From contig OX597822.1 in assembly GCA_951406725.2 (NCBI GenBank), positions 82,956,001 through 83,020,000 on the forward strand: a stretch of 64,000 bases of DNA, read 5' to 3'. Made by a program: the position numbers and the translations under genes. Shown in pieces: positions 4,728 to 55,328 of the stretch. The stretch's first letter is position 1. Each line of letters starts with the position of its first letter. The notes beneath the pieces are model-generated. The model searched no databases. It worked only from the letters and a program-made list of their open reading frames with translations, and was not told where the DNA came from. The DNA comes from Octopus vulgaris (lineage: Eukaryota).

Positions 4728-5187
4728 CTAGTCTTAAACAAGAATATTATTGACAGTGACTTCGAAGATTCAGCCAGTTAAGCCAACGTCGGATTGCGAT
4801 GCTTTGAAATTAATCTTGGGATTTATGTAGTCACTGTTGATTTAAAGTCATCCTTTGGTGTGTGGGTTCGAGTAGGGTGGTAATTAGATTTTAGGGCGGG
4901 TTGTTATGGAGAGGCATCTTGGAGAAATATTCTCACCTGCTTACAAAGTACTACACGCATTGATAAATTCTAAACAATGACATAACCCCAAAATTAATTT
5001 TAAAAAGATTCTCCAATACACCTCTCCATAACAATCCACCTAAAATCCAATTACACACCCAAGGATGATTTTAACTCACCATAGACTATAAAAAAATACC
5101 AAGATTAACTTCAATACATCGTAGTCTGACGATGGCTTAACTCGCCGAAACTTCGAAGACTGTCAATAAGTTCTTGTTTAAGAATAG
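4728..5187. mobile_element. Head-to-head inverted repeat, probably a Penelope-like pseudo-LTR pair, each arm with a decayed hammerhead
   Basis: Arms at ~4728-4930 and ~5007-5187 are imperfect reverse complements. A possible 12-bp TSD lies at 4718-4729 / 5188-5199 (10/12 match). Confidence 0.75.
5121..5163 (+). ncRNA. Minimal type I hammerhead motif, cleavage dinucleotide deleted
   Basis: GTAGT-CTGACGA-T-GGC(ttaactc)GCC-GAAA-CTTCGAAG-[TC missing]-ACTGT. The partner arm (4753-4797, minus) keeps the TC but has core mutations. Confidence 0.65.
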
Positions 5188-7469
5188 AAAATTTGTACTC
5201 TGCCAAAGTAGAAAGGGAAATGGTAACAAGAAATTATTATTTATCTCATTTTCACTCTCTCGAGAACATACATGTTTGTGCAAGTGCGCGCATATATGTA
5301 TGTGTATATGTATTTATGTATAACACACACCCACATTTGTGTCTACATGTACATGTATGTAAGTGATGGCACTTACAAGGCAACTTGCTTTTACTAGAAT
5401 TTCGGCAAGTCTCCGATAGTTTCTGTCTTAGACGTGTCACTTACAAGGCATTTGTTGAGCCGAGGTTATGATGTGGTTGAAGAATTTGGTCAAGATTCCG
5501 CGTAGTATTGTTGGGCGCATGTTGGTGCTTGAATGGCTAAAGTCGAGCTTCCTTCATAGCCAGGGAACTCGGTATTGTTGCTGAATCACTTATGGATTAC
5601 ACAGTGCTCCCTTCGTCGACAGCGGTGAACTAAGCCTGTACTATACAATCAGGTTGATTAGATTGACCGAGTTAGCGTACCGCCTGTTGCTGCATACAAA
5701 CTGTCGACTCTTCACTGGAAATATCGCACTTAATGTACTCAAACCCACCACAATTGGACAAAATAGTTTCTTTTTCTCTCAAAAGAAGAGAAGCGTACAA
5801 AAAAATTATATCGTTTTGTGTTTCTTTAGTAACTACAACTATTAATTTATAGCAATTCATAGCAATATTTATTAACTTATATATTGTCTACATAACTTAT
5901 ATTTTCGGAAGATAACTAATAATGATCGACATGAAGTCTGAATGCAATAAATCAATGTCACGAGCTACTACTGTTAGTAAAACAAGTAGGATTTCTTATT
6001 AGCTCTGTTATGATTAAGTGTCATATATAATACAATAAAATAACTCAGAACTGCTACAATGAAGTCAGTAAAAAAATCTAAAAAAAAACAAAACATATTC
6101 GGATCTTTAAACCTGCGTAATTATACTCGAGTTTATTTGTTATGGCTGTTGTTGTTATTGCTTTGAGTTTTATATCTGCACAATTTACCGCAACAATCAA
6201 ATATACAATTATTAGATCATATAAAAGGAAATTATCTATAACCAATCACATTAAGTTATTTTTCTGGCTAATATAATCAAATAGTTCGGAAAATTAACTT
6301 ATGAATTAAATTAAGAAATAATGGTTTTTCTCTCAAGCAACTTTTTTCGCCGATTATTACAAAATTTCTCATCGAAATATACGGTTTCACACAAGATACT
6401 TTTTAGCATGAATGTTTATAACTGTTAATCCTGATTCCCAAGGTCAAATTTCATTAAATTATCCTAATCACCCAATCATCAGTAGCTAAAGGACAAATTA
6501 ATAAAGAGTTAAACTAATAAAACGAAGCCTGATGGTTCGTATTTTGTTATTGACTCTGCTCCGTGTTTATGGCAAATGCATGTTAACTTAACACTCGCTG
6601 AATCAACCTCTTTTGTAGTAAATAGATGTTATGAGTAAGTACAGTTCATTGTTCTCTATAAACAGTTGTACCACAGTATAATCATCGTTAGTCTGGAGTG
6701 GCGAGGAGAAGCGCTTCTAAGTCCTTAATGACGGGGTTTTGTTTGAGTAATTCTGTGACTACCATCACGTCTCGAGGACGGGTGGGGGCCACAGATTGAA
6801 CGGACAGGGACTTTGTAAAACCGGGTTCCTGTATCATATATAACATTTAGTTTTTAATTTTTTTGTTTTTTTGCAAACACTGTACAATTGTAGGCGAGCA
6901 CTGGACCAATCGATTTCACAATCGAGTTTAAATTTCCAGGATTAACAATAAAATAAGTGTTCCGGCAGTTGCTTCTGACAAGACTCTATGGAAGAGGTGC
7001 CCGAGAACTCTATCCTCACTGGATTTGTGGGTGGAAAAGATGGATGGATGGATTACACCAAAATATACCTGATAAAGATATAAACTTAATACAATCCTAT
7101 TTCGCACTGTTTTTTAATCTCAGGCCTAATGCTTATGCAAGAAATCAATCTTATTTAAAATAAGAAACAGCAAAACATTATGGGTACGCCGAAAGTTTGC
7201 GAAAATTCGCAATCATAACCAAGTTTTCATTTCAGCTTCAAAATTGTTTAATTTCATTTACATCATGAATAGTTGAGGAAAATGTATGACGACTATAAAT
7301 CCCACCCGCTTCGAAAGTGTCACCTTTTGAGGGCAATCGAAGGACCGCAGTGTTTTTGAATAGAATTGTGACGTAGAGAAAAAGGTAAGCTCTTGGCAAA
7401 TGGAACTACGAATCGAGTTTTGACTGCCGGCTTTAGTTATTTTTCTTAGGCAATATCATCATCATCATT

Positions 7470-7737
7470 AGCAACTACAACAATCCCTGGACTTTAATGT
7501 CTCGATTTTTAGGACTAACAGGGCCGGTTACTTTGTCTCCAAGGCGACTAAAGTGACCGAGATCACAACTTCCCTCCCTTCGCTTCCAGACCGGTGCAGG
7601 ATTACTCATTTGCAGACGAGTAGACTGGAATAACATGACATGAAGGATTTTGCTCAAGAATACAACGCACCGCCCGGTCCAAGAGTGGAAACCACGATCT
7701 TACGATTGTTAGTGCAGCACTAACCACTGGGCCACGA
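7470..7737 (-). mobile_element. SINE family C variant
   Basis: The minus strand reads gtggcccagtggttagtgctgcactaacaatcgtaagatcgtggtttcc...gttgtattcttgagcaaaatccttc. Confidence 0.7.
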
Positions 7738-7824
7738 TCATTTCATGTCATGAACGCCATTGAGAAATGACAGGACATCCCACAATTGAATTTGTCTTCG
7801 AAAAGAATAATCATTTTTACTGGA

Positions 7825-8013
7825 AGCACAAGGCCTCAAATTTGGGGGAAGGGATTAAGTCGATTAGATCGACCCCAGTGCGTAACTGGTACTTATTTAA
7901 TCGAATGAAAGGCAACTCGACCTCGGCGGTATTTGAACTTAGAACATAAAGACAGACGAAATACTGCTAAGCATTTCGTCCGGCGCGCTAACGTTTCTGC
8001 CAGCTCGCCGCCT
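7825..8013 (-). mobile_element. SINE family B monomer
   Basis: ggcggcgagctggcagaaacgttagc head and B box gttcaaat on the minus strand. Confidence 0.85.
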
Positions 8014-8289
8014 TCTCTTCTGTAAGAATAACAACAATAATCATGATAATAATCATGATAATCATGATAATAATCACGATAATCAATTAAGACGAGGAAA
8101 AGATGGCGGTAACAGCAGCGCGGTGACCAACACCCAAGGCCAAACTTTAAAAGGAGGGTGCGCATTTGGTCGGATCGATATCAATGTAAAACTACTCCTT
8201 TCCGGAATCAACAAGGCAGCCCTCAGTATAGTCGATCAGTCTGCTAGAAATAGCAGCTAAAAATCTTCATTAAATTATACCTTTCACCT

Positions 8290-8652
8290 TCCACTTGTTT
8301 CAGTCATTTGACAGTAACGATGCTGGGGCACCGCCTTGGAAAATTTTAGTTGAACGAATCGACCCCAAGATTTATTATTTTTGAAGCCTGGTACTCGTTC
8401 TATCGGTTTCTTTTGCCGAGCCGTAAAGTTACGGAGACGTATAACAAACCAACATCGGTTGTCAAGCGGTGGTGAGGGACCAGCATACATACATAAGCTT
8501 CTTTCAGTTTCCGTCTACCAAATCTAATCACAAGGTTTTGCTCGACCCGAAGCTATAATAGAAGACACTTGCCCAAGGTGTCGCGCAGTGGGATTGAACC
8601 TGAGGCCATGTGGCCGAGAAGCAATCTTCTTACCATGCAGCCACGCCTGCGC
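8290..8652 (-). mobile_element. SINE family A
   Basis: Matches the family A head, core and tail. Confidence 0.8.
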
Positions 8653-10157
8653 CAACATACCGCATAGTTTTAAATAACGATGGATACATTAGAAAATATA
8701 GTTCCAGTTAATAAGATGGGTTGTCTTTAGTCATAAGTCTTCTTGGTCAGGACATGCTCGCAGGCCACAACATAACATAAACTGGAAATCCTTTCTCAAT
8801 TACAGAGATCCATCGGGTCAGGGCTCCACTCTGATTTCCCTGGCGTTAATGATATAGAAAAAATCTAATCCAACGTAGCTGTCTTTGCTCGCAGTGTTAC
8901 CACCACCAACAACAACATTATCAATCATGAAGTGGTTTTATGAGACAGCACTGCGTAATAATTTCTTCATATTCTTCAAAAATATTCTTAATCACAAGTC
9001 GAATCTCTTTTAAAATTGGAGCAGTCTATCCTAATTTAGCTAAGATCTTTTTTCCTAAGTTTGTTGGTAGATTCTTCAGGTTCTGCGAGATACTTTAACG
9101 TCTATTGCGAAAAAAGCTTCGTTTTCAATTTCGTTTAGAAAAAGAGCAGAATTCTGTAGTTGAATTGAAGACATAATCTTTGTCTTATCCATTTTTACCG
9201 AAGCATTATATACGAGTGGAACTTGTGAATACATCTTGTCTCAGAATCTGAGAAGAAACATACACACAAACATTCACAAACATACACACACCAGTGACTG
9301 CAGCACGACGACAATAACGACATCATCATCAACAATGCAAATCTCACAAAAGATGTCCATAAGAAAGAGGGGAAACGAACCAGCAAGAATAATCTGAACA
9401 AACAGCCATATTGGTGGCAACAACAGCAGTAAATGCAACAGCAGCAGCAACTACAAATATAGCGGTAAGAGTGACAGCAGCAACAATGAAGACAAGAAAT
9501 ATGAGAGCAACAACAGCTACTACAATAACAAATTGATTTACAAAAGAAAAAAAAACAATATGGCAGCGAACATGTTATAGGCCGCGAGGTATGAGAGTCG
9601 TTAGAGCGGAGAGCAAAATACCGCTCTGAAGTTGTTCTATCTGCGCTCCAAGTTCGAATCTTGCCGGAGTCAACTTTGATCCTTTTTGAGGTCGACAAAT
9701 GAAATACAACTAAACCAGGTTAACGGATTGGTGAGGCTGTTAGAGCATTGAGCAAGTGTTATAGAAACTGTTTCGGATTTTTGCTTTCTGAGTTGTTGTT
9801 AGGGGAGGTAGACGTAATCTGTCACCTGGTTCAACACTCCTACCTGGTCCTTCGTTGAATTTAGGGTTTACACAATAGTTACCTTTGAGACTTGCTCACT
9901 GGTTTGAGGATAAATTTCTTCCTGTCAGGGCCTCCCATCGTAGGCTCTGAAAAATTGAGGGTCATTGAGATTTTCCTTCCTTTCTTGATACAAGGAAGGA
10001 TAACCCTGGATATTGTAGCCCTAGATACATTGTGCCAGAAACAAAAAGTTCGTTTTTGACTGGAACATTTTTGATCATAAGATCCAATCGATCAGGGTTG
10101 GACGATGAAAACGACAACATTACAATGAAATCCCACAATTTCTTATTATAAAAATAG

Positions 10158-11750: not shown

Positions 11751-11900
11751 TTGCTCCTCCCCAAAACACAAAACTCTCATTCATTATATCGAATCCATGG
11801 TTAGATATAACGAATGAGAGTACAGTTGTATATTTAAGAGCTGAGGAATTTTGTACATTATTTACATTTGACAGATATTTGTCCTCTTCTTGTTTGTTAT

Positions 11901-11945
11901 TAAATACGTTTCGGCTGATATACCATCCAGCCTTCATCGGGTGTC
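11901..11945 (-). ncRNA. Decayed copy of the same hammerhead (CCGAUGA core, stem I 3' arm lost)
   Basis: Reverse complement: GACAC-CCGATGA-A-GGCTG(gatggtatat)CAGCC-GAAA-CGTA. Confidence 0.7.
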
Positions 11946-12187
11946 TTGGGAAAATTTCAACAACAAACAAGATGAGAACGAACATCCGTCAAATGAAAAT
12001 AATGTACACAATTCCTCATCTCTTAAATATAGAACTGTATTATCTAATCGGTACGGAGCCGACATTAGATTTCAATGGAGACATATAAACTCCATCAAAA
12101 ATTAGCTCGTCTTTCAAACATCTAACTTTCTTAAAAAAGAGAAAGAAAAAAAAAAAACAAACAAAAAAAGGTTCGAAATTTCCCCAA

Positions 12188-12233
12188 GACACCTGATGAA
12201 GGCTGGAGGTCATATCAGCCGAAACGTTGTGTT
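12188..12233 (+). ncRNA. Minimal type I hammerhead ribozyme, intact core
   Basis: Stem I GACAC/GTGTT; CTGATGA at 12193-12199 plus an extra A; stem II GGCTG/CAGCC; GAAA at 12221-12224; palindromic AACGTT stem III; GUU site. Confidence 0.85.
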
Positions 12234-12744
12234 AAAAACAAGCAAGATGAGGATAAATATCCGTCAAATGTAAATAATGAACGAATGAGAGAATATCAAG
12301 CGCGCCATGGTCACGCTTTATATTTGAGCTCCTTTCTTAAAGTTGGAGTCTTAATCAACTGACCCCTCATACTCGAACCATATCAACAATGGATTTCCAG
12401 TTTCTCTGGTTCAAAGTCTCTCTTTTACATTCCCCGATGTTCCAATGTTGTCACCACTACTCTTCGAACCCCTCCTGTTATCTGTAAGGAAGTTGCTCGT
12501 AATGCTAGAAATAACAACCAAATTTCTCCTAAATCACACCACATTCTCTTAAAACAGACATTGTGGATCTAAGTGCCTTGCAAGTAGGAATGGTCATGGC
12601 TGAAATATCTTTGATTACACATCTACTTGGTTTGCTTCAAACGGATAAGATTGATTTGATTTTTGGTCATCGATTAATCTCCATTCACATTTTATTGTTT
12701 TTATTCTTCCTTGTAAATACAAAACAGGCACAAGTCATAGTCGA

Positions 12745-13485
12745 ATGCATGGTTGTGTGGTTAATAATCTTGCTTTGCTACCGCGTGGCTTTCGGTTCAG
12801 TTCCATTGTGCGGACAGACCAATGACTTGTGAATGAATTTGGTTGACAGAAACTGTGTGGAAGCGAGCTGCAGAAACGTTTGCACGCCGGGCGAAATGCG
12901 TAGCCGTATTTCGTCTACCGTTACGTTGTGAGTTCAAATTCCGCCGAGATCGACTTTGCCTTTCATCCTTTCGGGGTCGATTAAATAAGTACCAGTTACG
13001 CACTGGGATCGATATAATCGACTTAATACCTATGCCTGTCCTTGTTTGTCCTCTCTGTGTTTAGCCCCTTGTGGGTAGTAAAGAAATAGGTATTTCGTCT
13101 GCCGCTACGTTCTGAGCTCAAATTCCGCCAAGGTCGAGTTTGCCTTTCATCCTTTCGTGATCGATTAAATAAGTACCAGTTACGCACTGGGGTCGATGTA
13201 ATCGACTTAATCCGTTTGTCTGTCCTTGTTTGTCCCCTCTATGTTTAGCCCCTTGTGGGCAATAAAGATATAAGGAACTGTGTGGAAGCCAGTCGTGTGT
13301 GTGTCTTTGTAACTATATTTTGTCCCCATCACCGCTTGATAACCAGTGTTTTGTTTACGTGCCCGTAACTTAGCGGTACAGCAAAAGCTACCGATACAAT
13401 AAATACTGGGTTCGATCCATTCGACTAAAACACTCTAAGGCAGCGCCCCAGTTTGGCCGTAGTCCAGTGACTGAAATAAGTAAAA
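12745..13485 (+). mobile_element. SINE family A interrupted by a family B dimer (12865-13275)
   Basis: An A head, then B, then an A tail. AACTGTGTGGAAGC is duplicated at 12851-12864 and 13276-13289. Confidence 0.85.
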
Positions 13486-14590: not shown

Positions 14591-16020
14591 ACTACGTCAG
14601 CGAGGTTACTCGAAATAGCAGTAATGCTTCCATCAAATCACACCATATCGTTTTAAATAACAAAGAATACACTTCATTATGTTGTCCCTGATATAAAAAC
14701 GAATGGGTTAGTCATGATTGGAACACCTTTGATCATAAGCCTGCTCGATCAAGGCTGACTTGGGGGTTAATGAATAATTATTCTTTCAACCAGAAATCAA
14801 TTTGAAGTCGCTTTTCATTAACTGTCGAGACAACCTTGGAAAATTACGTGCTCATAATAATTATATGCACATAATAATTACTTTGGCGCAGTTGTAGCTG
14901 TGTGGTTAAGAAGATCGCTTTGCAGCCATAGAATTTTGGGTGGGTTCAGTAATACTGTGCTGCATCTCGGGCTTGTCTCTTCAACTATAGCCTTGTGCTC
15001 ATCAATGCTCAGGAGTGAATTTGATATATCAGTGGCGTGTGGTGACTTCCGAGGTTGGTCATGCAATAAATAATTAGTGCACATGGCAGAGACGTATCCC
15101 GCACCCTAATTTTTTTTTAAACGGAAACCCTCATTTTCGACTCTGGAGATTCAGATTCTGAAAAAAAATTGGCGAAAATCGCAACTTCAAAATTTCAATT
15201 TACACCCCGCTTATTTCTCCATTTTTCATTTTCCAGAATTTTTTTTTGGTTGGGGGTAGGGAACACGTAGAAAAAAACAGAGATTATGATTCTGAAAAAA
15301 AATATTGTTTGTAAAATTTCAACATTTTTCAAAAAAAAAAAAAAAAAAAATTACCTCAACTCCCTCCCTTCCCGATTTTACGGCCTTCAAACAGGCTATC
15401 TACATGCTAGATATAACAGCCAAATTTCACAGGAATTTGTTGGGCGATAAAATAATGAAAAAAATATGTAATAAATCTACTCACCTTCCTGCAAAGATGT
15501 CTTTCAGAGAAATTTCCCGCAGTAAAATGAGGAATACTGTGACAAAGTTGTAAAAAAAAAAAAAAAGAAAAAGAGTCTGTTGGAGATTTGACTTTTTTCT
15601 GCTCTTATATTTTTTGTAACTTTTAAGTTTCATTTTCTAGAAAAAACACTTTCAGTTGAAAAAACCCCAAAAAAACTGAACACTTTAATTTCACTTCAAA
15701 ATATATTCCCTAACACACGTTTCAGTCATCTGAACAAATATTTCGAAAATACTAAAGATCGTATGAAAGTAATAGTGCACGTGGAATGATAATGGTAAAT
15801 TAACGAAAGATTAAATTAGCTATTTCAGAAATTAGATATATAATATAGATTATAGATATTGATTATATTTCTGATATCAGAATTTTTGAAAATTTCTTCA
15901 TACAAAATGATGGTTAATGATAATAAATTTCAAAACTTACGACAGAGCGAAATAGATATTCCAGACATTTGAGCTGACTAATAAGGAATTATGGGATTGC
16001 TGATATGTTTTATTTTGATA

Positions 16021-17096
16021 AGGCGGCGAGCTGGCAGGGCGTTAAGCGCGTCGGGCGAAATGCTTAGCGGTATTTCGTCTGTCGTTACGTTGTGAGTTCA
16101 AATTCCGCCGAGGTCGACTTTGCCTTTCATCGGGGTCGATTAAATAAGTACCAGTTACGCACTGGAGTCGATGTGATCGACTTAATACCTATGTCTGTCC
16201 TTGTTTGTCCTCTCTGTGTTTAGCCCCTTGTGGGTAGTAAATAAATAGGTATTTCGTCTGTCGTTACGTTGTGAGTTCAAATTCCGTACAGATCAACATT
16301 GCCTTTCATCCTTTCGGGGTCGATTAAAATAAGTACCAGTTACGCACTGGAGTCGATATAATCGACTCAATCCGTTTGTCTGTCCTTGTTTGTCCTCTCT
16401 GTGTTTAGCCCCTTTTTGGCAGTAAAGAAATAGGTTTTTTCGTCTGCCGCTAAGTTCTGAGTTCAAATTTCTCCGAGGTTGACTTTGCCTTTCATCCTTT
16501 CGGGGTCGATTAAATAAGTACCAGTTACGCACTGGGGTCGATATAATCGACTTAATCCGTTTGTCTGTCCTTGTTTGCCTTCTCTTTGTTTAGCCCCTTG
16601 TGGGTAGTAAAGAAATAGGTATTTCATCTGCCGCTACGTTCTGAGTTCAAATTCCGCCGAGGTCGACTTTGCTTTTCATCCTTTTGGGGTCGATTAAATA
16701 AGTACCAGTTATGCATTGGGTTCGATATAATCAAATTAATCCGTTTGTCTGTCCTTGTTTGTCCTCTCTGTGTTTAGCCCCTTGTGGGTAGTAAATAAAT
16801 AGGTATTTCGTCTGCCGCTACGTTCTGAGTTCAACATTGCCTTTCATCCTTTCGGGGGTCGATAAATTAAGTACCAGTTACGCACTGAGGTCGATGTAAT
16901 CGACTGGCCCCTTTCCCCAAAATTTTGGACCTTGTGCCTAGAGCAGAAACGCTATTTCGTCTGTCTTTACATTCTGACTTTGCCTTTCATCCTTTCGGGA
17001 GTCGATAAATTAAGTACCAGTTAGGTACTGGGATCGATCTAATCGACTGGCACCTTGCCCCAAAATATCGGGCCTTATGCCTAGAGTAGAAAAGAA
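16021..17096 (+). mobile_element. SINE family B multimer (about 6 tandem ~180-bp units)
   Basis: One head, aggcggcgagctggcag, then units restarting at gtatttcgtc near 16070, 16249, 16433, 16619, 16803 and 16953. Each unit carries gactttgcctttcatcctttcggggtcgat...aagtaccag, which resembles the Meta/MESC SINE domain. Confidence 0.9.
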
Positions 17097-17159
17097 GATA
17101 TATCAGTTGAATAAAGTTAAAACGTGGTCTGGTTTTCACAGCTTTTGTTATGGTATTTT

Positions 17160-17222
<63 letters not shown>

Positions 17223-17447
17223 TCATAAAGTTAAATTAGTTCTTAGTCAAGAATTCAACTGTCAGTTAAACACATTTGAAATCTGATGATTATATTATGT
17301 GCGAAAGCGTGAATTTAACTTTATGAGTATTACAAAATGTGTTTTTAATGTTAAAATACCATGAGAAAAAGACGTGAAGACAAGTCCATGTTTTAACTTT
17401 AATCAACTGATATTTACACATTCACACAAATTCGAAACAAGATATAA

Positions 17448-17486
<39 letters not shown>

Positions 17487-22216: not shown

Positions 22217-22276
<60 letters not shown>

Positions 22277-22280
<4 letters not shown>

Positions 22281-22420
22281 AGAATTCACAAAACCAAAAA
22301 AACAAAAGACGAAGACAGTTGGTGTAGACAACAAACAGATGTATTAGTATAACGTTCGGGAAGCGAAAAAGTCTTTAACGTTTCGAACCTACGCTCTTCC
22401 ACAGAAAGAAACAAGGATCC
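22277..22420 (-). mobile_element. Penelope-like pseudo-LTR fragment with a hammerhead variant
   Basis: Contains the motif at 22372-22409. Related pieces lie at 53013-53070 and 54355-54475. Confidence 0.6.
22372..22409 (-). ncRNA. Hammerhead-like motif, A6U core variant
   Basis: TCTTT-CTGTGGA-A-GAGC(gtag)GTTC-GAAA-CGTT-AAAGA. Confidence 0.6.
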
Positions 22421-22771
22421 CAGTTGTAACAGGGGCTGGAGTTGTGGTCGCCCAAATGTCCAGTTGGGAGCGAATCGGTAATCAGTAGCTAAACTTTGAG
22501 TCAGTAGGTATGAGTTAAAGAAGAGAAAAACAATTAATCAAGTGGTATTTAAATTCATTTAGTTTAGTTTTAATTAAGAGAGTTAACAAATAGGTAAAAT
22601 TAATAGATATAGATAATTCTACCAATATTGTATTAGTTTTAAGTCTCTCAAACTAAATGAATTTGAATGCCATAGACCTACCTTGATTAGTTGTTTTTCC
22701 TCTTCTTTAACTCATACATACAAGTGTATACATACACACATGCGCGCGCAGGTGCACAATTAAATACACAC

Positions 22772-22846
<75 letters not shown>

Positions 22847-22904
22847 GAAACAACAAAGCCGAGGGTGTGTGGAATTTTCAGGACATTTATAAAGAGAAAG
22901 TTAG

Positions 22905-22950
22905 TCTTACAGCTGTTTCTGGGATATTAGGGATATCCCTTCATCAGAGA
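22905..22950 (-). ncRNA. Minimal type I hammerhead, intact core
   Basis: TCT-CTGATGA-A-GGGATAT(cccta)ATATCCC-A-GAAA-CAGCTG-TA-AGA; palindromic ACAGCTGT stem III; GUA site. Confidence 0.8.
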
Positions 22951-22997
22951 TGATGTGAAATGGTTAAATAGAGGGAAATATTTAACCATCTCACATC

Positions 22998-23045
22998 GTC
23001 TCTAATGAAGGGATATCCCTAATATCCCAGAAACAGCTGTAAGAC
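22998..23045 (+). ncRNA. Partner hammerhead with G5A (CUAAUGA), probably inactive
   Basis: GTCT-CTAATGA-A-GGGATAT...ATATCCC-A-GAAA-CAGCTG-TA-AGAC. Confidence 0.7.
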
Positions 23046-23089
23046 TAACCTTCTCTTTATAAATATCCTTATTATTGTTTATTATTATT

Positions 23090-27429: not shown

Positions 27430-28510
27430 TGAATTCCAGAAACTTCCAGACTTTTTCAAGAGAGACATTTATTAATCTAAAAAAAAAAGTACAAAACTCT
27501 AATCTTCTTTAAAGTAGGATTCTCTGACTCCAATGCACTTCAATGCATTTGTAATGCTCAAGCCATTTCGTGAAGGCTCCATAGAAGCTCTCCAAAGTGG
27601 AGGTATCCAGGAGCCTTGTTACAGCCTCCTTCATTTTCAAAACTATTGCCTCTGCCTTCAGCTTGGGAATCAACCGAAAGTGACAGGGAGCAAGGTCTAG
27701 ACTGTAGGACAAACAACGATCAATTTTGATGCCCACCCATCTCTATCAAGTAGTCGGTTACCAGGATAGAACCGAGAACTGGTGCATTGTCTTTATGCAA
27801 GGTGCCACCGACCCGGACAGAAGAGCTCCAGGCTTTTGCGATGAAACCTCAAAAGTACTCTTTGCTGACTGTCTGACCAGAGGGAACCTAGTGAATGTAA
27901 ATGATGCCCTTGCTGTCGGAAAATGGAACCACCACAAGGTTCCCAACGAATTTGCTTTGTCTGGCCTTCTTCCGTTTGGGGAATCAAGGATACTTTCATT
28001 GGGCACTCTATCTCTCGCTTTCAGGATATAAAGGTGCATCTTGCTTTCGTCAAAGATCACCTGAGACTCAAGTACTCTTCGACTGCAGGTAATGAACTCA
28101 ATCGTCTCTTTGCCGTCACCAACGCATCTTTCCTTTTATTTGTCACTGCGTACGCAGGAAATAAACTGTGTACAAATTTTGCGCATATTCTGATCTACCT
28201 GGATAATTCTGTGAACAGTTTCCACACCAACTCCAAACTATATGCTTATTGTCTGTATAGACACACGGCGGCCTGAAAATTGTGACTTTTCTCAACCAGT
28301 TCTGATGTTCTGACGTCCTTCTTCCTACACCTCACATCGCATCTTACCTCCCCTCTACCGTCCTTAAACCTTTTGTACCAGCAAAAAACAGATGTTCGAC
28401 TCATAGAAGTTCATCCTTAAGCAGTTGGGGTATTTCATAAGTTTCTGTAACGTTTCGTCCAGTTTGATACAAAACTTTGTTGCATAGCCAGCTTCCAACT
28501 TGTCTTCACG
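27430..28510 (-). pseudogene. Decayed mariner (DD34D-type) transposon
   Basis: YSLDLAPCHFRLIPKLK (YSPDLAP motif), HKDNAP, DES, VPSGQTV and an N-terminal KFCIKL-like HTH, with many frameshifts. Confidence 0.85.
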
Positions 28511-28708
28511 TCCCGGATTTACTGTATCAAGGATAGCGTTTTTGTACAGTCTATTCTATTACATGCAAGCAGAAAAGCATTTCAAGTGCTATGCTAGTGG
28601 CCGGAACCCTCCCCCATCTAACTCATTGTGTTTTGTTCTTCAGTCTTAGCACTCATAAGGCTGGTTATCCAGTTTCCTCAGCATTTATGTGACAAGGATT
28701 ACAACATT

Positions 28709-28875
28709 GCTGTAATTTAGCCCCTGGAAACATCGTCTCCAGCTGACTATACGACATGATCTATGTCCTTATATTTTCGAACAAGGGAATCTGGCACCCT
28801 TGTTCGAAAATATAAGGACACAGATAGTGTCATATAATCAGCTGGAGATGATGTCTCCAGGGGCTAAGTTACAGC
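28709..28875. mobile_element. 167-bp hairpin MITE
   Basis: Arms gctgtaatttagcccctgg...tcgaacaaggg and cccttgttcgaa...ccaggggctaagttacagc. AACATT is directly repeated at 28703-28708 and 28876-28881. Confidence 0.75.
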
Positions 28876-29029
28876 AACATTAGTCCTAAACCAGGACTGA
28901 CATGCTATGTTGGCAAATAATCTTTACTCCAAAGTACTGTTGCTTAATATCTCTCGTTGTGAGATTTACAAATAGTAGTTTTCTAAAGGATAACAACATT
29001 GCCCCTGAATGGGATGCCGATCCTTTACA

Positions 29030-33647: not shown

Positions 33648-34243
33648 GGATCTTTATGGTTTTCGTCACTGTTTACAATTTTGTTCCAATTGTTTTCAAA
33701 TTTGGTATATTGATTAAGTTTTGTGTACTAATTATGAAAATGAAATTTATTTTTCCTATAAATCCATTATTAAAAAGTTATTAGCATTTAAAATTTGCAA
33801 AATTTGGGTATTTTAGCCAATCAGAAGTGAATATTTTACATATCACCTTGGCGAAAATTTCTATTTCCATAGTAACCAAAGCAAAGAAGCACCACGGAAA
33901 CAGTACTTCGCAAGTACCGTTTCCACAGTAACCAAAGATATTGCGTGCCAGGAGGAGAAGCAGAAAGATAATTTATTTTATAAAATCCTAGTTTAATGTT
34001 TTGACATGCCGATGACCCCCCGACTTCTTCCTGATGATGGAAGAGGCAGTGAACGTACTGTTTTCTGATTGGCTGAAAATACTGATAATTATCAAACTTT
34101 GAATACCTGTAATATTTTTGCAAAATTTTTCTGGAATAAATGAATACCAAATTCGGATTCAGCATCAAAAATTACATTTATATGATGAATAAAACATTTC
34201 TTTAAAAGATAATTGTAAACAGTGACGAAAACCACAAAGATCC
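33648..34243. mobile_element. Non-autonomous DNA transposon with 8-bp TSD (Merlin-like)
   Basis: TIR GGATCTTTATGGTTTTCGTCACTGTTTACAATT / AATTGTAAACAGTGACGAAAACCACAAAGATCC. TSD GACTGACT at 33640-33647 and 34244-34251. Confidence 0.85.
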
Positions 34244-37660: not shown

Positions 37661-38957
37661 CCTTTTCTATTTTTTAATTATTATAAATCTTCCACTGAGG
37701 GGGGAAGCCAATATCCAACAACGATACAAAGCTCCATCTTTGGGATGTAGTTAACACAGACGAATTCACATTTGGAGCTTGAGAAAACTCTTCCACTCAC
37801 AGATTAGACTTGTACTGTACGAATTAGCTGGTCAATTCCTCTTCCTGAAAATCCCAGTTTATCCAGATTCTCCTTTAAGAATTTACTAACAAAACCTAGT
37901 GCTCCAATTATTATTGGTATGTATATGAATTCATTGTCTGGATATAGAAGCTGGAGATTTTGAAGCAGTTTTCCATAGATATCTTCTTTTTCTTTGAAAT
38001 TCAAAGAGATATATCTGCAGGGCAGCTGACCTCTATGATGATATATACCTTTGCCCCTCTGTCCCAAACAACAATATCCGGTCTGTTAAGCTTACATTTG
38101 ACAGAAGTTTTGATGGGAGTATTCCACCGGTATTCCTTGAGTTGGTGCTTATGAATATATTCCATAACAAAGAGATTTTCTAAGTTTATTTCAGGATTGG
38201 TATTTAGGCAGTGTGTTACAGATCTCAGGGCCCCAATATTTACATGTATAAACCTGAACTTGTAATCTGGATAGAGTAACAGCAGATTTTTCAAAAGTTC
38301 ATCGTAGTTCTCATTTTCGCTGATCTTCAGCTTTATGTTAACATCCGCTAGACATCTGATTTCCATAACTGTACACAGCTGCTCTTCTCTATCCCAAATC
38401 ATTATATCAGGTCTGTTGTGTTTATATTTTATTAAGGTTTTCACTAGGACATCCCATTAGTACTCCTTTTTATTATAAGTGGCTAAGGCTTTTACCATGC
38501 TGTGAGTTCTCGTTTCTGTGCTCTCGGGGTTATCCTTCCAATGGATGTCATTATAGAGTGTCCTAGCTATATCATGTCGCATCGATAGATAATGCCGTGA
38601 TGATATTTTCGGACGACTGCTTATGATGTGGGTGATATCGTCAGTGTCAACTCCACAAAGTCTGCATCGGGTGTCACATTTTACTGCTTTTTTTTGTATT
38701 TCTGTCCCTTTTGTGCATCAGATATTTGGTTTGCAAACATATACCCTTCAAAGTGGGAGGTAGTAATCTGGTTGTTGGTCCATAATAGACTGCTTTAATG
38801 ATCAATGTCACAATTATCTCTGAGCTTTCTACTAACATATCCATGCATGGTCTTCTGCTGATATACGCTCGACCTTTCATCTGATAATATATTACAGTTG
38901 AGTCGTGCGACTTCTTTGGGCATGTATTCTAGGTTATCAGACAAGGAATGCAGTACG
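37661..38957 (-). pseudogene. Two tandem R4/Dong-like fragments (CCHC-like knuckle + two restriction-like endonuclease segments + 3' UTR)
   Basis: RCRLCGVDTDDITHIIS...RHD; KHNRPDIMIWDRE...; then a second NRPDIVVWDRG...EVSCPAD...IPIIIGALG. The 3' end abuts (TATG)n at 37596-37660. Confidence 0.85.
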
Positions 38958-38967: not shown

Positions 38968-39815
38968 CAAGGGGGTAACCCCCAAAACTGGAATTTTGCA
39001 ATATTATTTTATTCACTCAGTTTTACATGTTTATATTTTTATCGCCGTCAAAGTATTCTCCATTTTGGAGCAATGCATCGGTCCAGACGAGTTTTCCACT
39101 GTTCCAAGCAGTCCTGGAACTCTTGCGAAGCGATGCCTTTTAACGCTTCTGTCGCTTTTTTTCACCTCTTCCATATCAGCAAATTGTTTTCCTTTAAGGA
39201 CTTTTTCATTCGGGTAACAAAAAAAGTCGTAGGGAGCAAGACTTGGTATATAGAGTGAGGGGGTGAGGTAAGCGGGGTCATGCCATTTTTGGTCAAAAAC
39301 TGTCTCACATTCAAGGCAGTGTGCGCAGGCGCATTATCGCGATGAAACCACCATTCTCCACTTTGCTACTGGTCGGGGTGTTTCTGTTTCGCAAACGCTT
39401 CAGAACTGCCAAGTGAAATGTCTGGTTAACAGTCTGACCAGGAGGAACAAATATTGTGTGGATAATTCTCATCGCATCGATGAAACAAATCAGCATCATC
39501 TTGACGTTGGACTTTACTTGACTTCGGGGCCGTGGTGACATTGAATGCTTCCACTGACTTGATTGCTGCTTCGTTTCCGTGTCATAGGCGTAGTACCAGC
39601 TTTCGTTACCAGTGATAACCTTCGAAAAAAGTTCACAACATACATTCAGTTGTGACTGTTTTTAATCTTCCATGAGCAAGAGAGGCACTAAATTTACTGC
39701 AATTCGTTCAATTCGCAATTCCTCGCTTAAAATTCATTGAGAGGAGCTCCAGGACACACCAGTCATATTAACAAGTTCGTCAATTGTTCGGCGACGGTCC
39801 TCTAAGATTAGTTTC
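38968..39815 (-). pseudogene. Mariner transposon, 3' two-thirds with right TIR
   Basis: TA|CAAGGGGGTAACCCCCAAAA terminus; ITGNESW, VPPGQTVN, PSLAPYDFF, WKTRLDRCI, GEYFDGD. Confidence 0.9.
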
Positions 39816-39823: not shown

Positions 39824-40190
39824 TGGACTGCCACATTAGCTTGGCGATAACTACTAATATCCAGTGCCGCTGCCGTAGTCTCCTTTAGAGAGACTTAGAA
39901 ATATTAATATTTCTACTTTTGAAAACCAGTGGATGTATTCCACTGAATTAAGGTAAATAATCCTTCGAACAGACGGTTAGTGCTGGGTTCGGCTGCTCTG
40001 CATTGATAAGGGGCAAATACCCTGAAACTAGTCTATAGTTGCCTGACCAGCAAGGGGAACAGGCTGACCTCCCCTGTCCGAAGGTTATAATGGACACAGG
40101 TTTGTGTGTCACATAGCTAGCTAGAGGTGATGGCAGCATTCGTCCTATATTTCTGGACTGCCACATTAGCTTGGCGATAACTATTAATAT
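39824..40190 (+). mobile_element. Retrozyme-like / Penelope-like 330-nt unit with 37-nt terminal redundancy
   Basis: tggactgccacattagcttggcgataactaytaatat occurs at 39824-39860 and 40154-40190. The unit has an internal hammerhead motif and many hairpins. Confidence 0.75.
39998..40038 (+). ncRNA. Type I hammerhead motif with U3-A8 core
   Basis: CTGCA-TTGATAA-GGGG(caaata)CCCT-GAAA-CTAG-TC-TATAG; palindromic ACTAGT stem III; GUC site. Confidence 0.65.
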
Positions 40191-40295: not shown

Positions 40296-40503
40296 ATAAG
40301 AAAATGGAGAAGCACATTAGTTGGTTCATCAGCTTTAGGATATTAAAATGTTAACTTATTTATTTATCAAAACGACAACCATAATAACATACATACATGA
40401 ATAATATACTGTATGTATGTATGTTATTATGGTTGGCGTTTTGATAAATAAATAAGTCAACATTCTAATATCCTAAAGCTATTCTCCATTTTCTTATTTG
40501 TAA
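40289..40503. repeat. Foldback inverted repeat (~95-bp arms)
   Basis: ataaataagaaaatggaga...agctttaggatatt...catacatac mirrored by gtatgtatg...aatatcctaaagct...tctccattttcttattt. Confidence 0.85.
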
Positions 40504-42724: not shown

Positions 42725-43039
42725 ATACACACATACACACACACACGCGTGCGCGCGAACGCACACACACACACACACACACACACCGCAAATACGCGTA
42801 TCTACGCATATTCGTTGCAGACACAGGAGACAATATAATTATTTGAACACATTCAAAAGATAATTAAGCACTTTACAGCCACATCTCTCTCTCACTCTCT
42901 TCCCCCCTTTCTCTCACTCACACACACACACGTACACACATACGTAAACACTCCGGCTCGCAACAACACCACACACTCACCTGAGACAATGTTATTATCT
43001 GAACAGATTCAGACAACAGATAAGCACATACACACACAC

Positions 43040-43962
43040 ACATCCCGATAAGACACACACACACACACATCGCGACACAGACACAGACACACACACACAC
43101 ACACACATTCCGATACAGACACACACACACACACATTCCGATACACACACACACACTCACATCCCGATACAGACACCCCACACACACATCCCGATACAGA
43201 CACCCCCACACACATCCCGATGCAGACACCCCACACACACATCCCGATACAGACACCCCCCACACACATCCCGATGCAGACACCCCACACACACATCCCG
43301 ATACAGACACACACACACACATTCCGATACACACACACACACTCACATCCCGATACAGACACCCCCCCCACACACATCCCGATGCAGACACCCCACACAC
43401 ACATCCCGATGCAGACACCCACACATCCCGATACAGACACACACACACACATCCCGATACAGACACCCCCCACACACATCCCGATACAGACACCCCCCAC
43501 ACACATCCCGATGCAGACACCCCACACACACATCCCGATGCAGACACACACACACACATCCCGATGCAGACACCCCACACACACATCCCGATGCAGACAC
43601 CCCCCACACACATCCCGATGCAGACACCCCACACACACATCCCGATACAGACACACACACACATTCCGATACACACACACACACTCACATCCCGATACAG
43701 ACACCCCACACACATCCCGATACAGACACCCCCCCACACACATCCCGATACAGACACCCCCCACACACATCCCGATGCAGACACCCCACACACACATCCC
43801 GATACAGACACCCCCCACACACATCCCGATACAGACACCCCCCCACACACATCCCGATGCAGACACCCCCCACACACATCCCGATACAGACACCCCCCAC
43901 ACACAACCCGATGCAGACACCCCCCACACACATCCCGATACAGACACCCCCCCCCACACACA
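43040..43962. repeat. ~25-bp minisatellite (CACACACATCCCGATRCAGACACCCC)n, roughly 35-40 copies
   Basis: Read directly. It explains all the long Cys/Val/Gly and His/Thr/Pro ORFs here. Confidence 0.95.
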
Positions 43963-44114
43963 CCTATAAACACTGTAAGTTTGCAAAGTTGAATAAATTG
44001 TTTTGCTTTGATGAAGAGAAATTAAAATTATTTCCTCATTTTGCGAAGTTTTTTGTCCTCACTTTCTGCCGACGCAGATCCACTAACTCCTTTTGTTTCA
44101 CCTTGATAATTGGT

Positions 44115-48923: not shown

Positions 48924-49085
<162 letters not shown>

Positions 49086-49195
49086 CTCGGTAGAATTAGA
49101 ACTCAGAACGTATAGACCGTCGAAATGCCGCTAATTATTTTGTCCAGCGTGCTAAGGTTTCTGCCAACTCGTTGCATTCTCCAAGCAAGTAAATT

Positions 49196-49939
49196 CTTTT
49201 CTACTCTAGGCACAAAGTCCGAAATTTTGGGTGATGGGCCAGTCGATAAGATCAACCCCAATACGCAACTGGCACTTAATTTATCGACCCCGAAAGGATG
49301 AAAGGCAAAGTCAATCTCGGTGGAATTTGAAATCAAAACGTAAAGACAGACGAAATGCCGCTAAGCGTTTCGCCCGGCGTACTAACGTTTCTTATTTCTT
49401 TATTGCCCACAAGGAGCTAAACATAGAGGGGGCAAACAAGGACAGGCAAAGGGATTAAGTCGATTACATCGACCCCAGTGCGTAACTGGTACTTTATTTA
49501 TCAATCTCGAAAGGATAAAAGGCAAAGTCGACCTCGGTAGAATTTGAACTCAGAACGTAGCGGCAGACGAAATACCTATTTCTTTACTACCCACAAGGGG
49601 CTAAACACAGAGAGGACAAACAAGGACAGACAAAGGGATTAAGTTGATTATATCGACCCCAGTGCGTAACTGGTACTTATTTAATCGACCTCGACGGAAT
49701 TTGAACTCAGAACGTAACGGCAGACGAAATACCAATTTCTTTACTACCCACAATGGGGCTAAACATAGAGAGGACAAACAAAGACAGACAAACGGATTAA
49801 GTCGATTACATCGACCCTAGTGCGAAAGGATGAAAGGCAAAGTCGACCTCCGCGGAATTTGAACTCAGAACGTAACGACAAACGAAATACGGCTACGCAT
49901 TTCGCCCGGCGTGCTAACGTTTCTGCCAGCTCACCGCCT
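49196..49939 (-). mobile_element. SINE family B multimer with 16-bp TSD
   Basis: TCCAAGCAAGTAAATT at 49180-49195 and 49940-49955. Confidence 0.9.
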
Positions 49940-50370
49940 TCCAAGCAAGTAAATTATCGCGAGAAATTAATTGTTGATTACGTCCTCTTTATGGGGATTC
50001 ACTGAAAAAAGAAAAAAATACTGCTAGGTTTTGTATCACCTTTCAAAGTTCATTATCCGATTTCAAGTCATTAACCTCTCTCAATCATTTCCCGTAATTA
50101 TACAAATTAATCTATTTCTTTTTTGTTTTTCAACATGTAAAATGTACATCCTCTGATCTGCGGCTTTGTGTTTAACAAATAATTTTATCACTTAGGTGCA
50201 GTGATGGCTGTGTGGCCAAGAAGCTTGCTCTGCAACCACGTAGCTTCGGGTTCAGTCCCAGCTCGCGGCATCTTGAACAAGTATCTTTTATTATCTCCTT
50301 AAGAGTATCAATGTAAGTGAATTTGGTATGCGGAAACTGTGTGGAAGCTCGTCGTATAAATGTATATATA

Positions 50371-51029: not shown

Positions 51030-51034
51030 TGTGT

Positions 51035-51077
<43 letters not shown>

Positions 51078-51614
51078 TGTGTCTTTCCTTCCATCCACTG
51101 TTTGACAACCGGCGTTGGTTTGTTTACGCCACCGTAACTTAGCGGTCCTGCAAAAGATCTGATACAGGAAGTGTCTCAAACTTAAAAACTTAAAAAATAA
51201 ACTTAAAAAATAAATACTGGGGCTGACAAGACGATGCCACAGCATGGCCGCAGTCCAATGACGAAAGCAAGTGAAAAAAAGGCACGAATTATTTTCAAAG
51301 TTTCCGAAACGGAACAAAAAAACAAAAAAAAAAACTATACAGGTGAGGTAAGAACTGACGAAACTCCCTTTTCCTTTGGGAGTAAACGTGAGAAGATTTC
51401 TTTTCTCTCACCTAATTAGAGGCAAATTTGAATAAATTAAACATTTACTAAACCCGGCATTCATTTCTTCCCCTTTCCCCTTAATTATCTAATTTTATGC
51501 CATTCACATCTTTCATTCCGGTCTGTCAGGATTCTGCTTTTTTCTTCTACTTGAGGCAAAATTTTAATAAATTTAGAATTTACTGCGTTCGCCATATGAC
51601 AATTAATCTTCATA

Positions 51615-52230
51615 AACATGCATGCAAACACACACACATACGAATATATACATACATGTGGATATAAATGTACAGGCATACACATGTACATATGTACATA
51701 CATACATGCATACATACACACATACATACACACATACATACACACATACATGCACACACACATACACACACACACACACATATATATATACACACACAGA
51801 GAGACATACATGCATGCATTCAAATATGCATGCGTACGTATATATGCACATGCATACATATATGCATACAAACATAGTCAAATGCACATATATACATATA
51901 TATATATATAAACACATATATTTACCCATATACATATATGCATATAAATTGCTGCATAAACGTTTACAAATGTATAAAAGAATTACACACACACATACGT
52001 ATATACATTCATACATATATGCTTATATATATATACACACATATATATGTATAAATGTATATATATGCAAGTACATATATACATATATAAATAAATGTAT
52101 ATATGCGTATATATATATATACATACACATGTACGTATGCATATGTATATATACATACATATGCTTTCGCACATGCACATACGCACATGCACATACGCAC
52201 ATGCACATACGCACATGCACATACGCACAC
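51615..52230. repeat. Degenerate (CATA)/(TA)/(GCACAT) microsatellite field
   Basis: Read directly from the sequence. Confidence 0.9.
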
Positions 52231-52526
52231 ATAATATGGCACCTAAGGACATGCTTTGATGATTGCTGAGTCAGGTAAGGTGAAGGTAAAGAGTGATTGA
52301 AAATGTGTCCCTTGTTGTTTCCCCCTTACCTTAACCTTAGCTTGGAGTCAAGGAAAAAAATACAAGTTGAAGGCATATGCAATCATATCAGTAGAACTTA
52401 GAAGCAAATCTGTGAAAAAATCACACACACACATACAGACACACACACACACACACACAAGACTGAACGGAATGAAATGCAATTTCATGTTCAATGATAT
52501 TGTAATGGCGATTATGTAACTTTGTG

Positions 52527-54072
52527 AGGCGGCGAGCTGGCAGAAGTGTTAGCATGCCGGGCGAAAATGCGTAGCCGTATTTCGTCTACCGTTACGTTGT
52601 GAGTTCAAATTCCGCCGAGATCGACTTTGCCTTTCATCCTTTCGGGGTCGATAAATTAAGTACCAGTTACGCACTGGAGTCGATATAATCGACTTAATCC
52701 GTCTGTCTGTCTTTGTTTGTCCTCTCTGTGTTTAGTTTCTTGTGGGTAGTAAAGAAATAGGTATTTCGTCTGTCGCTACGTTCTGAGTTCAAATTCCACC
52801 GTGGTCGACTTTGCCTTTCATCATTTCGGGTTCGATTAATTAAGTACCAGTTACGCTCTGGGATCGATATAATCGACTTAATCCGTTTGTCTGTCCTTGT
52901 TTGTCCTCTCTGTGTTTAGCCTCTTGTAGGTAGTAAAGAAATAGGTATTTAGTCCGTCTTAACGGTCTGAGTTTAAATTCCGCCGAGGTCGACTTTGACT
53001 TTCATTCTTTGTTTGAGTTTTTCACGTTTCGAGTCTACGCTCTTCTACAGAAGGATTTGAAAAGAGAAATGTATACTTGTGTGTGTATATGTATCTGTGT
53101 GTGAATGTGTATGTATGTGAGTGTATGTGCGTATGTGTGTGTGTGTGTATGTTTAGTTGTGTGTGTATCTGTATGTGTGTGTGCGTGTGTGTGTTTTTGT
53201 GTCGATGTAATCGACTTAATCCCTTTGTCTGTCCTGGTTTGTCTCCTCTATGTTTAGTTCCTTGTGGGCAATAAAAAAATAAGAAACGTTAGCACGCTGG
53301 GCGAAATGCCTAGCCGTATTTCGTCTGCCGTTACGTTCTGAGTTCAAATTCCGCCGAGGTCGAATTTGCCTTTCATCCTTTCGGTGTCGATTAAATATGT
53401 ACCAGTTACGCACTGGGTTCGATATAATCGACTTAATCCATTTGTCTGTCCTTGTTAAGGGGGCAATCTGGCAGAAACGTTAGCACGCCGGGCGAAATGC
53501 TTAGCAGTATTTCGTCTGCTGCTACATTCTGGGTTCAAATTCCGCCGAGGTCGACTTTGCCTTTCATCCTTTCGGAGTCGATTAAATAAGTACCAGTTAC
53601 GCACTGGGGTCGATATAATCGACTTAATCCTTTTGTCTGTCCTTGTTTGTCCTCTCTGTGTTTAGCCCCTTGTGGGTAGTAAAGAAATAGGTATTTCGTC
53701 TGCCATTATGTTCTGAGTTCAAATTCCGCCGAAGTCGACTTTGACTTTCATCCTTTCGGCGTCGATAAATTAAGTACCGGTTACGCACTGGGGTCGATAT
53801 AATCGACTTAATCCCTTTGTCTTTCCTTGTTTGTCGCCTCTATGTTTAGCCCCTTGTGGGCAATAAAGAAATAAGAAACGTTAGTGTGCCGGGCGAAACG
53901 CTTAGCGGCATTTTGTCTGTCTACGTTTTGAGTTCAAATTCCACCAAGGTCGGCTTTGCCTTTCATCCTTTCGGGATCGATAAATTAAGTACCAGTTGCG
54001 TACTGGAGTTGATCTAATCTACTGCCCCCTCCCCCAAAATTTCGAGCCTTGTGCCTTGAGTAGAAAAGAATA
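52527..54072 (+). mobile_element. SINE family B multimer array with an internal insertion and 13-bp TSD
   Basis: ATGTAACTTTGTG at 52514-52526 and ATGCAACTTTGTG at 54073-54085. About 7 units, with a foreign segment at 53010-53200. Confidence 0.85.
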
Positions 54073-55328
54073 ATGCAACTTTGTGTTATTTTAATGGTAT
54101 TTCATGGATACAGGCGCAACATATCTTTATATTTATAGCATGTACAAATACCTACATCTTCTAGTAACAATCACACACGAACACAAACACATATATATAT
54201 AAGACGGGCTTCTTTCAGTTTCTGTTTACCAAATCCACTCACAAGGCTCTGGCCGTCGGGAAGTTATGCTAGAAGACACTTGGCCGAGGTGCCACGTAGT
54301 GGGAATGAACCCAGAACCGTGTGCTTGGCAAGCAAACGTCTTTTACTTTATCAGAGCGTCATACCAAGACACACTGCTTGTTGTTCCCTTACCTGTCTGT
54401 TTTTTTTTTTATGATTGTGTTTTTCACGTTTCGAGTCGACACTCTTCTACAGAAGGAATTGAGAAGAGAAATCATGCAGAAAACAGATGTACATTACCTA
54501 TCAGGTGTGTGTGTATGTGTGTGTGTGTGTGTGTGTGTATGTGTGTGTGTGTGTTTATGTGTTTGCATGTGTGTGTATGTGTATGTGTGTTTATGTGTGC
54601 GTGTATGTGTGTATGTGTGTGTGCGTATGTGTGAGAATGTGTGTGCATGTGTGTGTGTATGTATGTGTGTGTGTGTGTGTGTCTACTCGTGTGTGTGTAT
54701 CTATGTGTGTGTATGTGTGCGTGCGTGTGTTTGTGTCTTTATGTATGAATGCTTGTATGCATGTCTGTATGTGTGGAGGGATATGTACATGAATGATATG
54801 TCTATGGATGCCCGTAATGGTGCATATATGTATTTGAATGCCTCTTGAGTGCATGAACGCATATTTGTATGGATATAAGTAATTTTTTTTTTAGCTATAT
54901 AAATTCTTCCCGGAAAGAAAAACCTATTTTCTAACATAGAAACAAAGCCCTATCGTTTGGCGAACGAAAGTGAATGTACCGTGTTGAACATTAGCAAAAG
55001 ACCGACATTCTTTCACTGTTCCGCACCAGTTGATTATCTCTTTGGAATATATACATTAGATCAGAGACAATCTTTCGGCTTTCAGTCACAGATGGGAGGA
55101 TTGTTGACCAGGTCTTGGTTAGCATTTCGATGGCAGTAACCAAGGCAACAAGTAGTGATTTCAGCAGACATAACTGGGGAACAAAACTGAAGGCTTTCTG
55201 AAATCCAGTCATTAATTTTACGTTAAGACTGAAATTGTCGCAAAGATGTAACAAACCGCTTCTATCCTGTTTCCTTCTTCAGATACGCTATTTTTAATTT
55301 CATATATAATCCGTTATTCTTTTTGAAA

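Follow-up and report, generated by a model that had tools for sequence, protein, structure and literature searches.

What do eleven hammerhead-shaped motifs within one short stretch of an animal genome represent? The motifs lie in 64,000 nucleotides of Octopus vulgaris DNA (contig OX597822.1, positions 82,956,001 to 83,020,000, forward strand; hereafter referred to as the window) and had been interpreted, from the letters alone, as a window-wide system of at least five separate families of retroelements bearing minimal hammerhead ribozymes. A type I hammerhead-shaped motif or its decayed copy was found at 11 of the 11 listed sites, and the sites sort into six genome-wide repeat families, A to F. 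Very probably, the sites represent independent insertions, mostly dead, that carry hammerhead motifs: five of the families would be 5′-truncated 3′ ends of Penelope-like elements (PLEs), and the remaining one, E, a likely retrozyme that Penelope-type enzymes carry in trans.

The window belongs to a 2.80-Gb assembly of 227 contigs, has a GC content of 30–48% per 2 kb and is rich in microsatellites and short repeats, which were mapped by masked self-BLAST. Could chance matches in such AT-rich repeat DNA account for the motifs? The window was searched with a full descriptor (core, stem II of at least 3 bp, palindromic stem III, UH and stem I of at least 3 bp) and compared with 300 block-wise dinucleotide shuffles of itself. 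The strict core gave two matches (12193+ and 22947−), and a relaxed core, written after these families had been seen, gave three, adding 22404−. The shuffles yielded 0.01–0.02 matches on average and never more than one, so shuffled sequence does not reach a similar density. What speaks for chance is that core, stem II and GAAA alone match 3.3 ± 1.9 times per shuffle (maximum 9, compared to 12 in the window), that Rfam is silent and that folding is ordinary. The Hammerhead family was not among the 150 listed of 260 Rfam matches in the window, and it was not matched in the 39.8–40.2 kb stretch or, at gathering score, in 16 loci. Six window copies fold no better than shuffles (z −1.33 to +0.40), as expected of short open motifs; young copies of two subfamilies of E, E2 and E3, fold better (z −4.18 and −2.09). 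Chance is hardly credible, given the full-descriptor control, hammerheads in the family majority sequences, 31 full-descriptor matches against about 0.2 expected in 600 kb sampled elsewhere in the genome, and covariation in E. Only two copies in the window carry an unaltered motif; the other nine are broken or off the standard motif.

Relatives in the host's own genome bear the motifs out. For each query 40 candidates were scored and 30 loci fetched, and majority sequences were taken from alignments of the 29 nearest relatives. First-look candidates numbered 419 for A, 2626 for B, 2040 for C, 1707 for D, 1996 for E and 634 for F, with 399 for the copy at 53017. Each family majority holds a hammerhead with stems I and II and a palindromic helix III, stem II being weak in F, and the standard core is matched at 10 positions by 27/29 copies of B, 25/29 of D and 18/29 of F. 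Covariation was measured, and found, in the E subfamilies only; copies of A to D and F decay neutrally. Beyond short chance-level matches A to F have no sequence in common, so the claim of separate families stands, with a different grouping for three sites. The motif at 17283, listed as a partner or decayed copy, represents the sixth family, F. The copies at 53017 and 54421, listed in the same way, are decayed members of family C, the family of the site at 22372; a separate family was ruled out because their relatives are C subfamilies.

The proposed PLE origin is borne out for five families by remains of reverse transcriptase (RT) or GIY-YIG endonuclease (EN) upstream of other copies; within the window itself no PLE open reading frame (ORF) remains were found by tblastn or in the ORF list. 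Clade assignments rest on motifs, such as the Cys linker, rather than on trees. A C copy with a long 5′ part (L262) contains the end of an EN that shares 51% identity with a Neptune-like ORF. Among 30 loci fished with the C-terminus of the C EN, 17 are followed on the same strand by the C motif (partial in one). Locus L276 of this family has RT, Cys linker and GIY-YIG, and homologues of its protein carry PF01541 and PF26215; for a family C protein the sole named match, which is also the most identical (71% over 27% of the query), comes from Octopus bimaculoides (UniRef). In F, GIY-YIG lies ~440 nt upstream in 6/30 loci (PF01541, E 1.3e-4), preceded by a thumb and a CX4CxxC linker. By these features C and F both appear to be 3′ ends of Neptune-like PLEs. 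In B, one locus of 30 (L026) encodes, ~580 nt upstream, 235 aa with the RT C-terminus, thumb and GIY-YIG start and no Cys linker, which identifies B as a predicted 3′ end of a Penelope/Poseidon-like PLE. GIY-YIG-like EN remains were detected 1.1–2.3 kb upstream of D in 4/6 extended loci, with a CxCX5C linker in L212. This linker defines the Hydra clade (PMC8557442), and D, for which EN only was found, is predicted to be a Hydra-like 3′ end. In A, an 800-nt non-coding part is followed by Hydra-like EN pieces in 4 of the 30 loci fished with that part, and by inverted ones in one additional locus; A is likely a Hydra-like PLE 3′ end, an assignment weaker than the other four. The C-terminal GIY-YIG and the linkers (CX2-5CxxC in C and F, CxCX5C in D, none in B) are as described for the EN-containing Neptune, Hydra and Penelope/Poseidon clades (PMC8557442).

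Several observations weigh against these assignments. The link for B comes from a single ORF-bearing locus. No single A locus has EN and hammerhead together in sense, the link being made in two steps via the 3′ untranslated region. Pfam yields weak RT matches (E 0.0055) or none, and full-length PLEs with two terminal repeats (pseudo-long terminal repeats, pLTRs) were not seen in extensions of 8–10 kb. In one C-like copy (L263) the EN lying 2 kb upstream is of Hydra type and probably belongs to a neighbour. Independently of these assignments, a C-terminal coding stretch of dynein heavy chain (PF18199) at L158:2411-3097− runs in frame into a GIY-YIG fragment (PF01541); a PLE piece next to dynein sequence, processed or exonic, is the probable explanation.

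Table 1. Hammerhead-bearing insertions and associated pieces in the window; the core column gives core position 3.
Feature	Positions	Strand	Core	Description
Family A, inverted 5′-truncated arm	4728..4926	−	4792	Decayed hammerhead; C4, A9 and A15.1 changed
Family A, arm	4935..5191	+	5126	8-nt palindromic inner stem III; 2-nt deletion removed cleavage triplet; likely Hydra-like PLE 3′ end
Family B, inverted arm	11856..12004	−	11940	C4, stem I lost; then short forward 3′-part piece 11959-12004
Family B	12169..12288	+	12193	Intact minimal hammerhead; predicted Penelope/Poseidon-like PLE 3′ end
Family F, inverted 3′-end piece	17098..17163	−		Without hammerhead
Family F	17246..17483	+	17283	Weak stem II; cleavage triplet altered in window copy; predicted Neptune-like PLE 3′ end
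Family C	22268..22412	−	22404	Minimal hammerhead, U6; ends at (TA)n run; predicted Neptune-like PLE 3′ end
Family D	22813..22982	−	22947	Intact motif; additional A either side of stem II; predicted Hydra-like PLE 3′ end
Family D, inverted partner	22979..23069	+	23002	G5 changed to A
Family E, retrozyme-like unit of ~361 nt	39824..40190	+	40003	37-nt terminal redundancy (39824-39860 = 40154-40190); U3-A8 core; 2/6 stem I pairs broken
Family C, decayed fragment	53010..53070	−	53050	U6; position 17 = G; stem I lost
Family C, decayed fragment	54412..54472	−	54452	U6; 90% like the 53010 copy

Non-canonical cores were also anticipated, and three kinds are present: U3-A8, A6U and U4C. The A6U change is fixed in family C. 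An exact 27-nt C pattern has 16,737 matches in the genome, 16,101 with U6 and 636 with A, C or G at this position; the reversed pattern, used as a control, has none. The first 100 non-U6 matches listed (70 C, 20 A, 10 G) have a spectrum that looks like decay from U. All 29 aligned C copies have U6 in place of the conserved A6. Position 7 varies freely (T40, A24, C22, G14 among the first 100 matches listed). Its base changes together with position 17 from one subfamily to another; U6 was thus retained by several source elements. G at position 17 was found in 10/37 copies of a set fished with a G17 query and in 1/41 of two other sets. A sister family of C (L367, L379, L395, L007, L308) has an identical stem II and A6, which makes U6 likely derived; no PLE peptide was found beside these five copies. 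C4 is present in 3/5 of them, in 15 of 29 A copies (U4 in 11) and in 5/8 copies of a D subfamily (L403, L420, L095, L188), so that U4C seems to have been fixed three times in this genome. C ends also occur at L228:1636-2631 and 7876-8668 as head-to-tail arrays of 203-nt units (5 and 4 units, a TA run in each) inside a 6.2-kb local duplication; we did not adopt them as a retrozyme family, C having an ORF-bearing parent.

Do such motifs still cleave? Changes of A6 are harmful (A6C kobs <0.1/min, PMC3088659) and CUGA mutants have low activity (PMC9901934), and catalytic mutants of the hammerhead of an anole Poseidon element insert in vitro unimpaired (PMC11167929). Together with the prevalence of U6 in C and of C4 in the three groups just listed, this favours an alternative in which the PLE motifs, above all C, no longer cleave, their fold persisting as a structure that the element's protein uses, or drifting slowly, with catalysis dispensable for spread. 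We consider this doubtful. Positions 3, 4, 5, 8, 9 and 12–15 of C stay fixed while 7 and 17 vary, as they should if selection acted on a hammerhead core; a viroid tolerates U4C (PMC3088659); and B, D and F keep the standard core. The anole PLE hammerhead cleaves only with its protein (PMC11167929). Natural variants known so far are U3-A8, U4C and, in one phage, A6C (PMC3088659). We met no natural A6U fixed in a high-copy family, either in a literature search of mostly open papers or in Fig. S3 of PMC4209133 with its 56 motifs. Family C and its A6 sister form a natural pair for asking if PLE hammerheads must cleave.

Family E is the part of the window for which the suggested presence of retrozymes holds, the other five families being PLE ends. 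Its motif, at 39998 in the window, had been called minimal; E is instead a non-coding retrozyme-like unit of ~360 nt with a canonical-looking hammerhead. Sixty loci were collected, and removal of four without a parsable core and two duplicates left 54, every one of which fits a circular permutation of one 361-nt unit. No ORF above 73 aa is present in the unit (longest 57/73 aa), and no other upstream sequence is common to the 60 loci. An exact E pattern has 124 matches, with U3-A8 in 97 of 100 listed and C3-G8 in none listed. An unbiased sample added the subfamilies E2 (79% identical to E1) and E3 (52% to E1, C3-G8 core); across these 52–79% identities the unit remains 359–362 nt. GC contents are 43.8% (E1), 41.2% (E2) and 49.9% (E3).

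The E hammerhead has a 6-bp helix I with an internal loop and a 4-bp helix II with a 6-nt loop, loop 2 being 5 nt in E2 and E3. Its loops may resemble canonical tertiary contacts, judging in part by a machine-read Fig. S1 of PMC4209133. Across 13 distinct sequences 95.9% of cells pair, and 10 of 17 pairs, including 3-8 and the stem III palindrome, change on both sides. This exceeds all 500 shuffles (0/500 as high) and all slid controls, a comparison that, the sequences being related, is not a probability; two rows are shortened upstream and E3 contributes one distinct row. By sequence E would qualify as a non-LTR retrozyme, with only E3 above the 45% GC limit of the class.

How did E spread? 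At L401 (E3), ~5.7 units on one strand stand head-to-head with 1.8 units on the other, 98–100% identical, with TA runs at both ends and a tail on one side; L371 (E2) is built alike, and L270 (E1) is a further multimer. These multimers are young and bear the marks of PLE insertion, with inverted arms set head-to-head, TA targets and a tail on one side, which points to PLE-driven mobility. Of the 54 loci, 35 end at one TA-like site and 12 some 57 nt further, and 24 have an inverted piece; the two ends may correspond to the two internal RT start sites and the tail described in PMC11167929. Alternatively, though this is unlikely, E could be a gutted PLE end, and its arrays the product of local DNA duplication (satellite birth) with no RNA circle involved. 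Most E loci are no longer than a monomer, only 10/54 reaching more than 175 nt upstream; family C also forms local arrays, those at L228; and a satellite route is argued in 10.64898/2026.07.22.740005. Against this, three diverged subfamilies keep the unit and a covarying canonical fold, the arrays lie on both arms of one head-to-head insertion at L401 and L371, and no parent sequence is found upstream in the 60 loci. The retrozyme reading of E, which we prefer, has its own difficulty: E is without sequence link to A–D and F.

A few further observations concern E. At L346:1783-2306 the 5′ end of an E dimer meets, via a short inverted piece, a Neptune-type ORF fragment of opposite direction; this single case could be a template switch naming the helper, and we treat it as a hint. 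L293 was ruled out as evidence of a Neptune helper, being a nested insertion in a TA run. A near-perfect palindrome without hammerhead in the window (28707-28877) has a visual likeness to the 3′ part of E, for which BLAST gave just a 13-nt match. Contigs of sequencing runs that are presumed, but not recorded, to be RNA cover E1 and E2 units; as such contigs cannot reveal strand, ends, level or circles, they do not enter the argument. Relative to the E2 array, one contig of run X5 has mainly T>C differences at L371:8768-8980 (9 of 10 listed), a pattern that A-to-I editing of the opposite strand would give; it is one contig from a run of unsure type, and alleles are possible.

The inverted and partial-tandem layout noticed in the window is general. 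An inverted copy lies within 1.5 kb in 14 (B), 8 (D), 8 (F), 7 (E), 6 (A) and 2 (C) of 30 loci each, and in 44 of 49 cases it is 5′ of the motif. We found 5′ truncation with an inverted 5′ copy, an AT-rich target and a tail. A layout with an inverted 5′ copy has been drawn for PLEs, with 5′ truncation, one-sided tail and (TA)n targets as here (PMC8557442); the tail differs, 47–66 nt in E compared to 30–40 nt in that work. With inverted partners on the opposite strand, we infer that one transcript would carry the motif and its antisense and could not form a cis dimer.

In the mechanism that we propose, by analogy with characterised elements, an RT-endonuclease would nick AT-rich DNA (PMC8557442, PMC11167929). 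Reverse transcription would begin downstream of the hammerhead, at either of two internal sites, and in most cases break off early, so that each stub keeps the motif, and priming from the other strand would yield the inverted arm. Minimal motifs of source elements may cleave tandem transcripts weakly, as dimers via palindromic stem III, probably helped by the element's protein. In E, cleavage of multimeric RNA would release putative monomers or circles, and these would be copied by the same PLE route into arrays of more than unit length (rolling copying). It counts against this scheme that, among nine Xenopus retrozyme dimers, eight failed to cleave (10.64898/2026.07.22.740005). Tentatively, we suggest that the genome holds a retrozyme superfamily still inserted by PLE enzymes, with the PLE signature at its junctions, and that its commonest Neptune-like PLE spread through several subfamilies with an A6U hammerhead, which would be either a new natural protein-assisted core variant or proof that cleavage is not needed for PLE spread.

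Is the concentration of motifs particular to this window? Sixty 10-kb stretches at round coordinates outside it, 600 kb in total, contain 45 profile matches (A 2, B 13, C 16, D 5, E 9, F 0; three of the C matches belong to the sister family). The window has 11 motifs where 4.8 are expected from this sample (Poisson p 0.01 by motif, 0.03–0.08 by insertion), a comparison biased by the choice of the window for its motifs and by profiles built from its own nearest relatives. Motif density is thus near the genome's norm, and the idea of a window-wide system was not borne out. The approximately twofold density is what could suggest a host-used, window-specific regulatory system; with the same two biases, the broken or off-standard state of most copies and the genome-wide spread of the families, we regard such a system as very improbable. 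Roughly extrapolated (44 per 600 kb), the 2.8-Gb genome would hold ~200,000 hammerhead-derived motifs, none of which was caught by our Rfam scans. At least four further hammerhead motif types were seen outside the window (L396:3798, L408:8996, L412:2767, L398 and L416:3899, among the sampled stretches L363-L420; L104 and L070); several of these types have a U3-A8 core or a long stem II.

Many minimal-hammerhead families in one window are ordinary for such genomes, and the novelty implied by the original prediction does not hold: multi-family minimal hammerheads are already described by the thousand (PMC4209133). In that work, metazoan PLE pLTRs carry many families per genome, mostly as solo shortened copies, with opposite-strand pairs 100–700 bp apart. 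The motifs are alike in CUGANGA, extra base, G-C stem II, GAAA, palindromic helix III and UH, and in the U3-A8 variant. They differ in that none of those in Fig. S3 has U6 or C4, found here in C and A, respectively, and in the additional A on both sides of stem II in D and the weak stem II of F. No cephalopod is listed in the accessible part of PMC4209133, and our search, which covered mostly open papers with Repbase and Dfam outside it, met no paper on cephalopod hammerheads or retrozymes. The known picture of PLE hammerheads thus appears extended by U6 in family C and by the non-minimal family E.

Animal non-LTR retrozymes (PMC7229834; 10.64898/2026.07.22.740005) are, like E, non-coding tandem units of 170–400 nt with a type I hammerhead, co-occurring with PLEs, and E1 and E2, at 41–44% GC, are like them in composition too. 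E differs from them in its core, U3-A8 in E1 and E2 and C3-G8 in E3, and in the 50% GC of E3. E insertions also carry PLE marks (inverted arms, TA target, tail) that we did not find described for retrozymes in the accessible parts of these two sources, where a word search gave no mention of inverted insertions. That PLEs mobilise retrozymes was suggested in PMC7229834, and 10.64898/2026.07.22.740005 makes the case from co-occurrence and pLTR phylogeny; the argument here is from the junction structure of nearly identical arrays.

The window contains other repeats. Near-perfect palindromes without hammerhead lie at 22504-22721 and 40331-40480, and an inverted pair ~180 nt long, resembling miniature inverted-repeat transposable elements, at 33648-33826 and 34063-34243. 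Two short interspersed repeat families are very abundant, with up to ~30 and ~15 overlapping matches per site, and one is in ~184-nt tandem units; sites of one family include 12854-13278, 16010-17096, 49085-49955 and 52523-54072, and those of the other 244-637, 1787-2172 and 8281-8660. ORF remains at 38001-38456+, 39311-39661− and 27758-28135− presumably derive, judging by motifs, from a restriction-like-endonuclease retroelement, a mariner transposase and a long interspersed nuclear element, respectively. A C/A-rich minisatellite of ~27-nt units at 43000-44000 gives spurious long ORFs.

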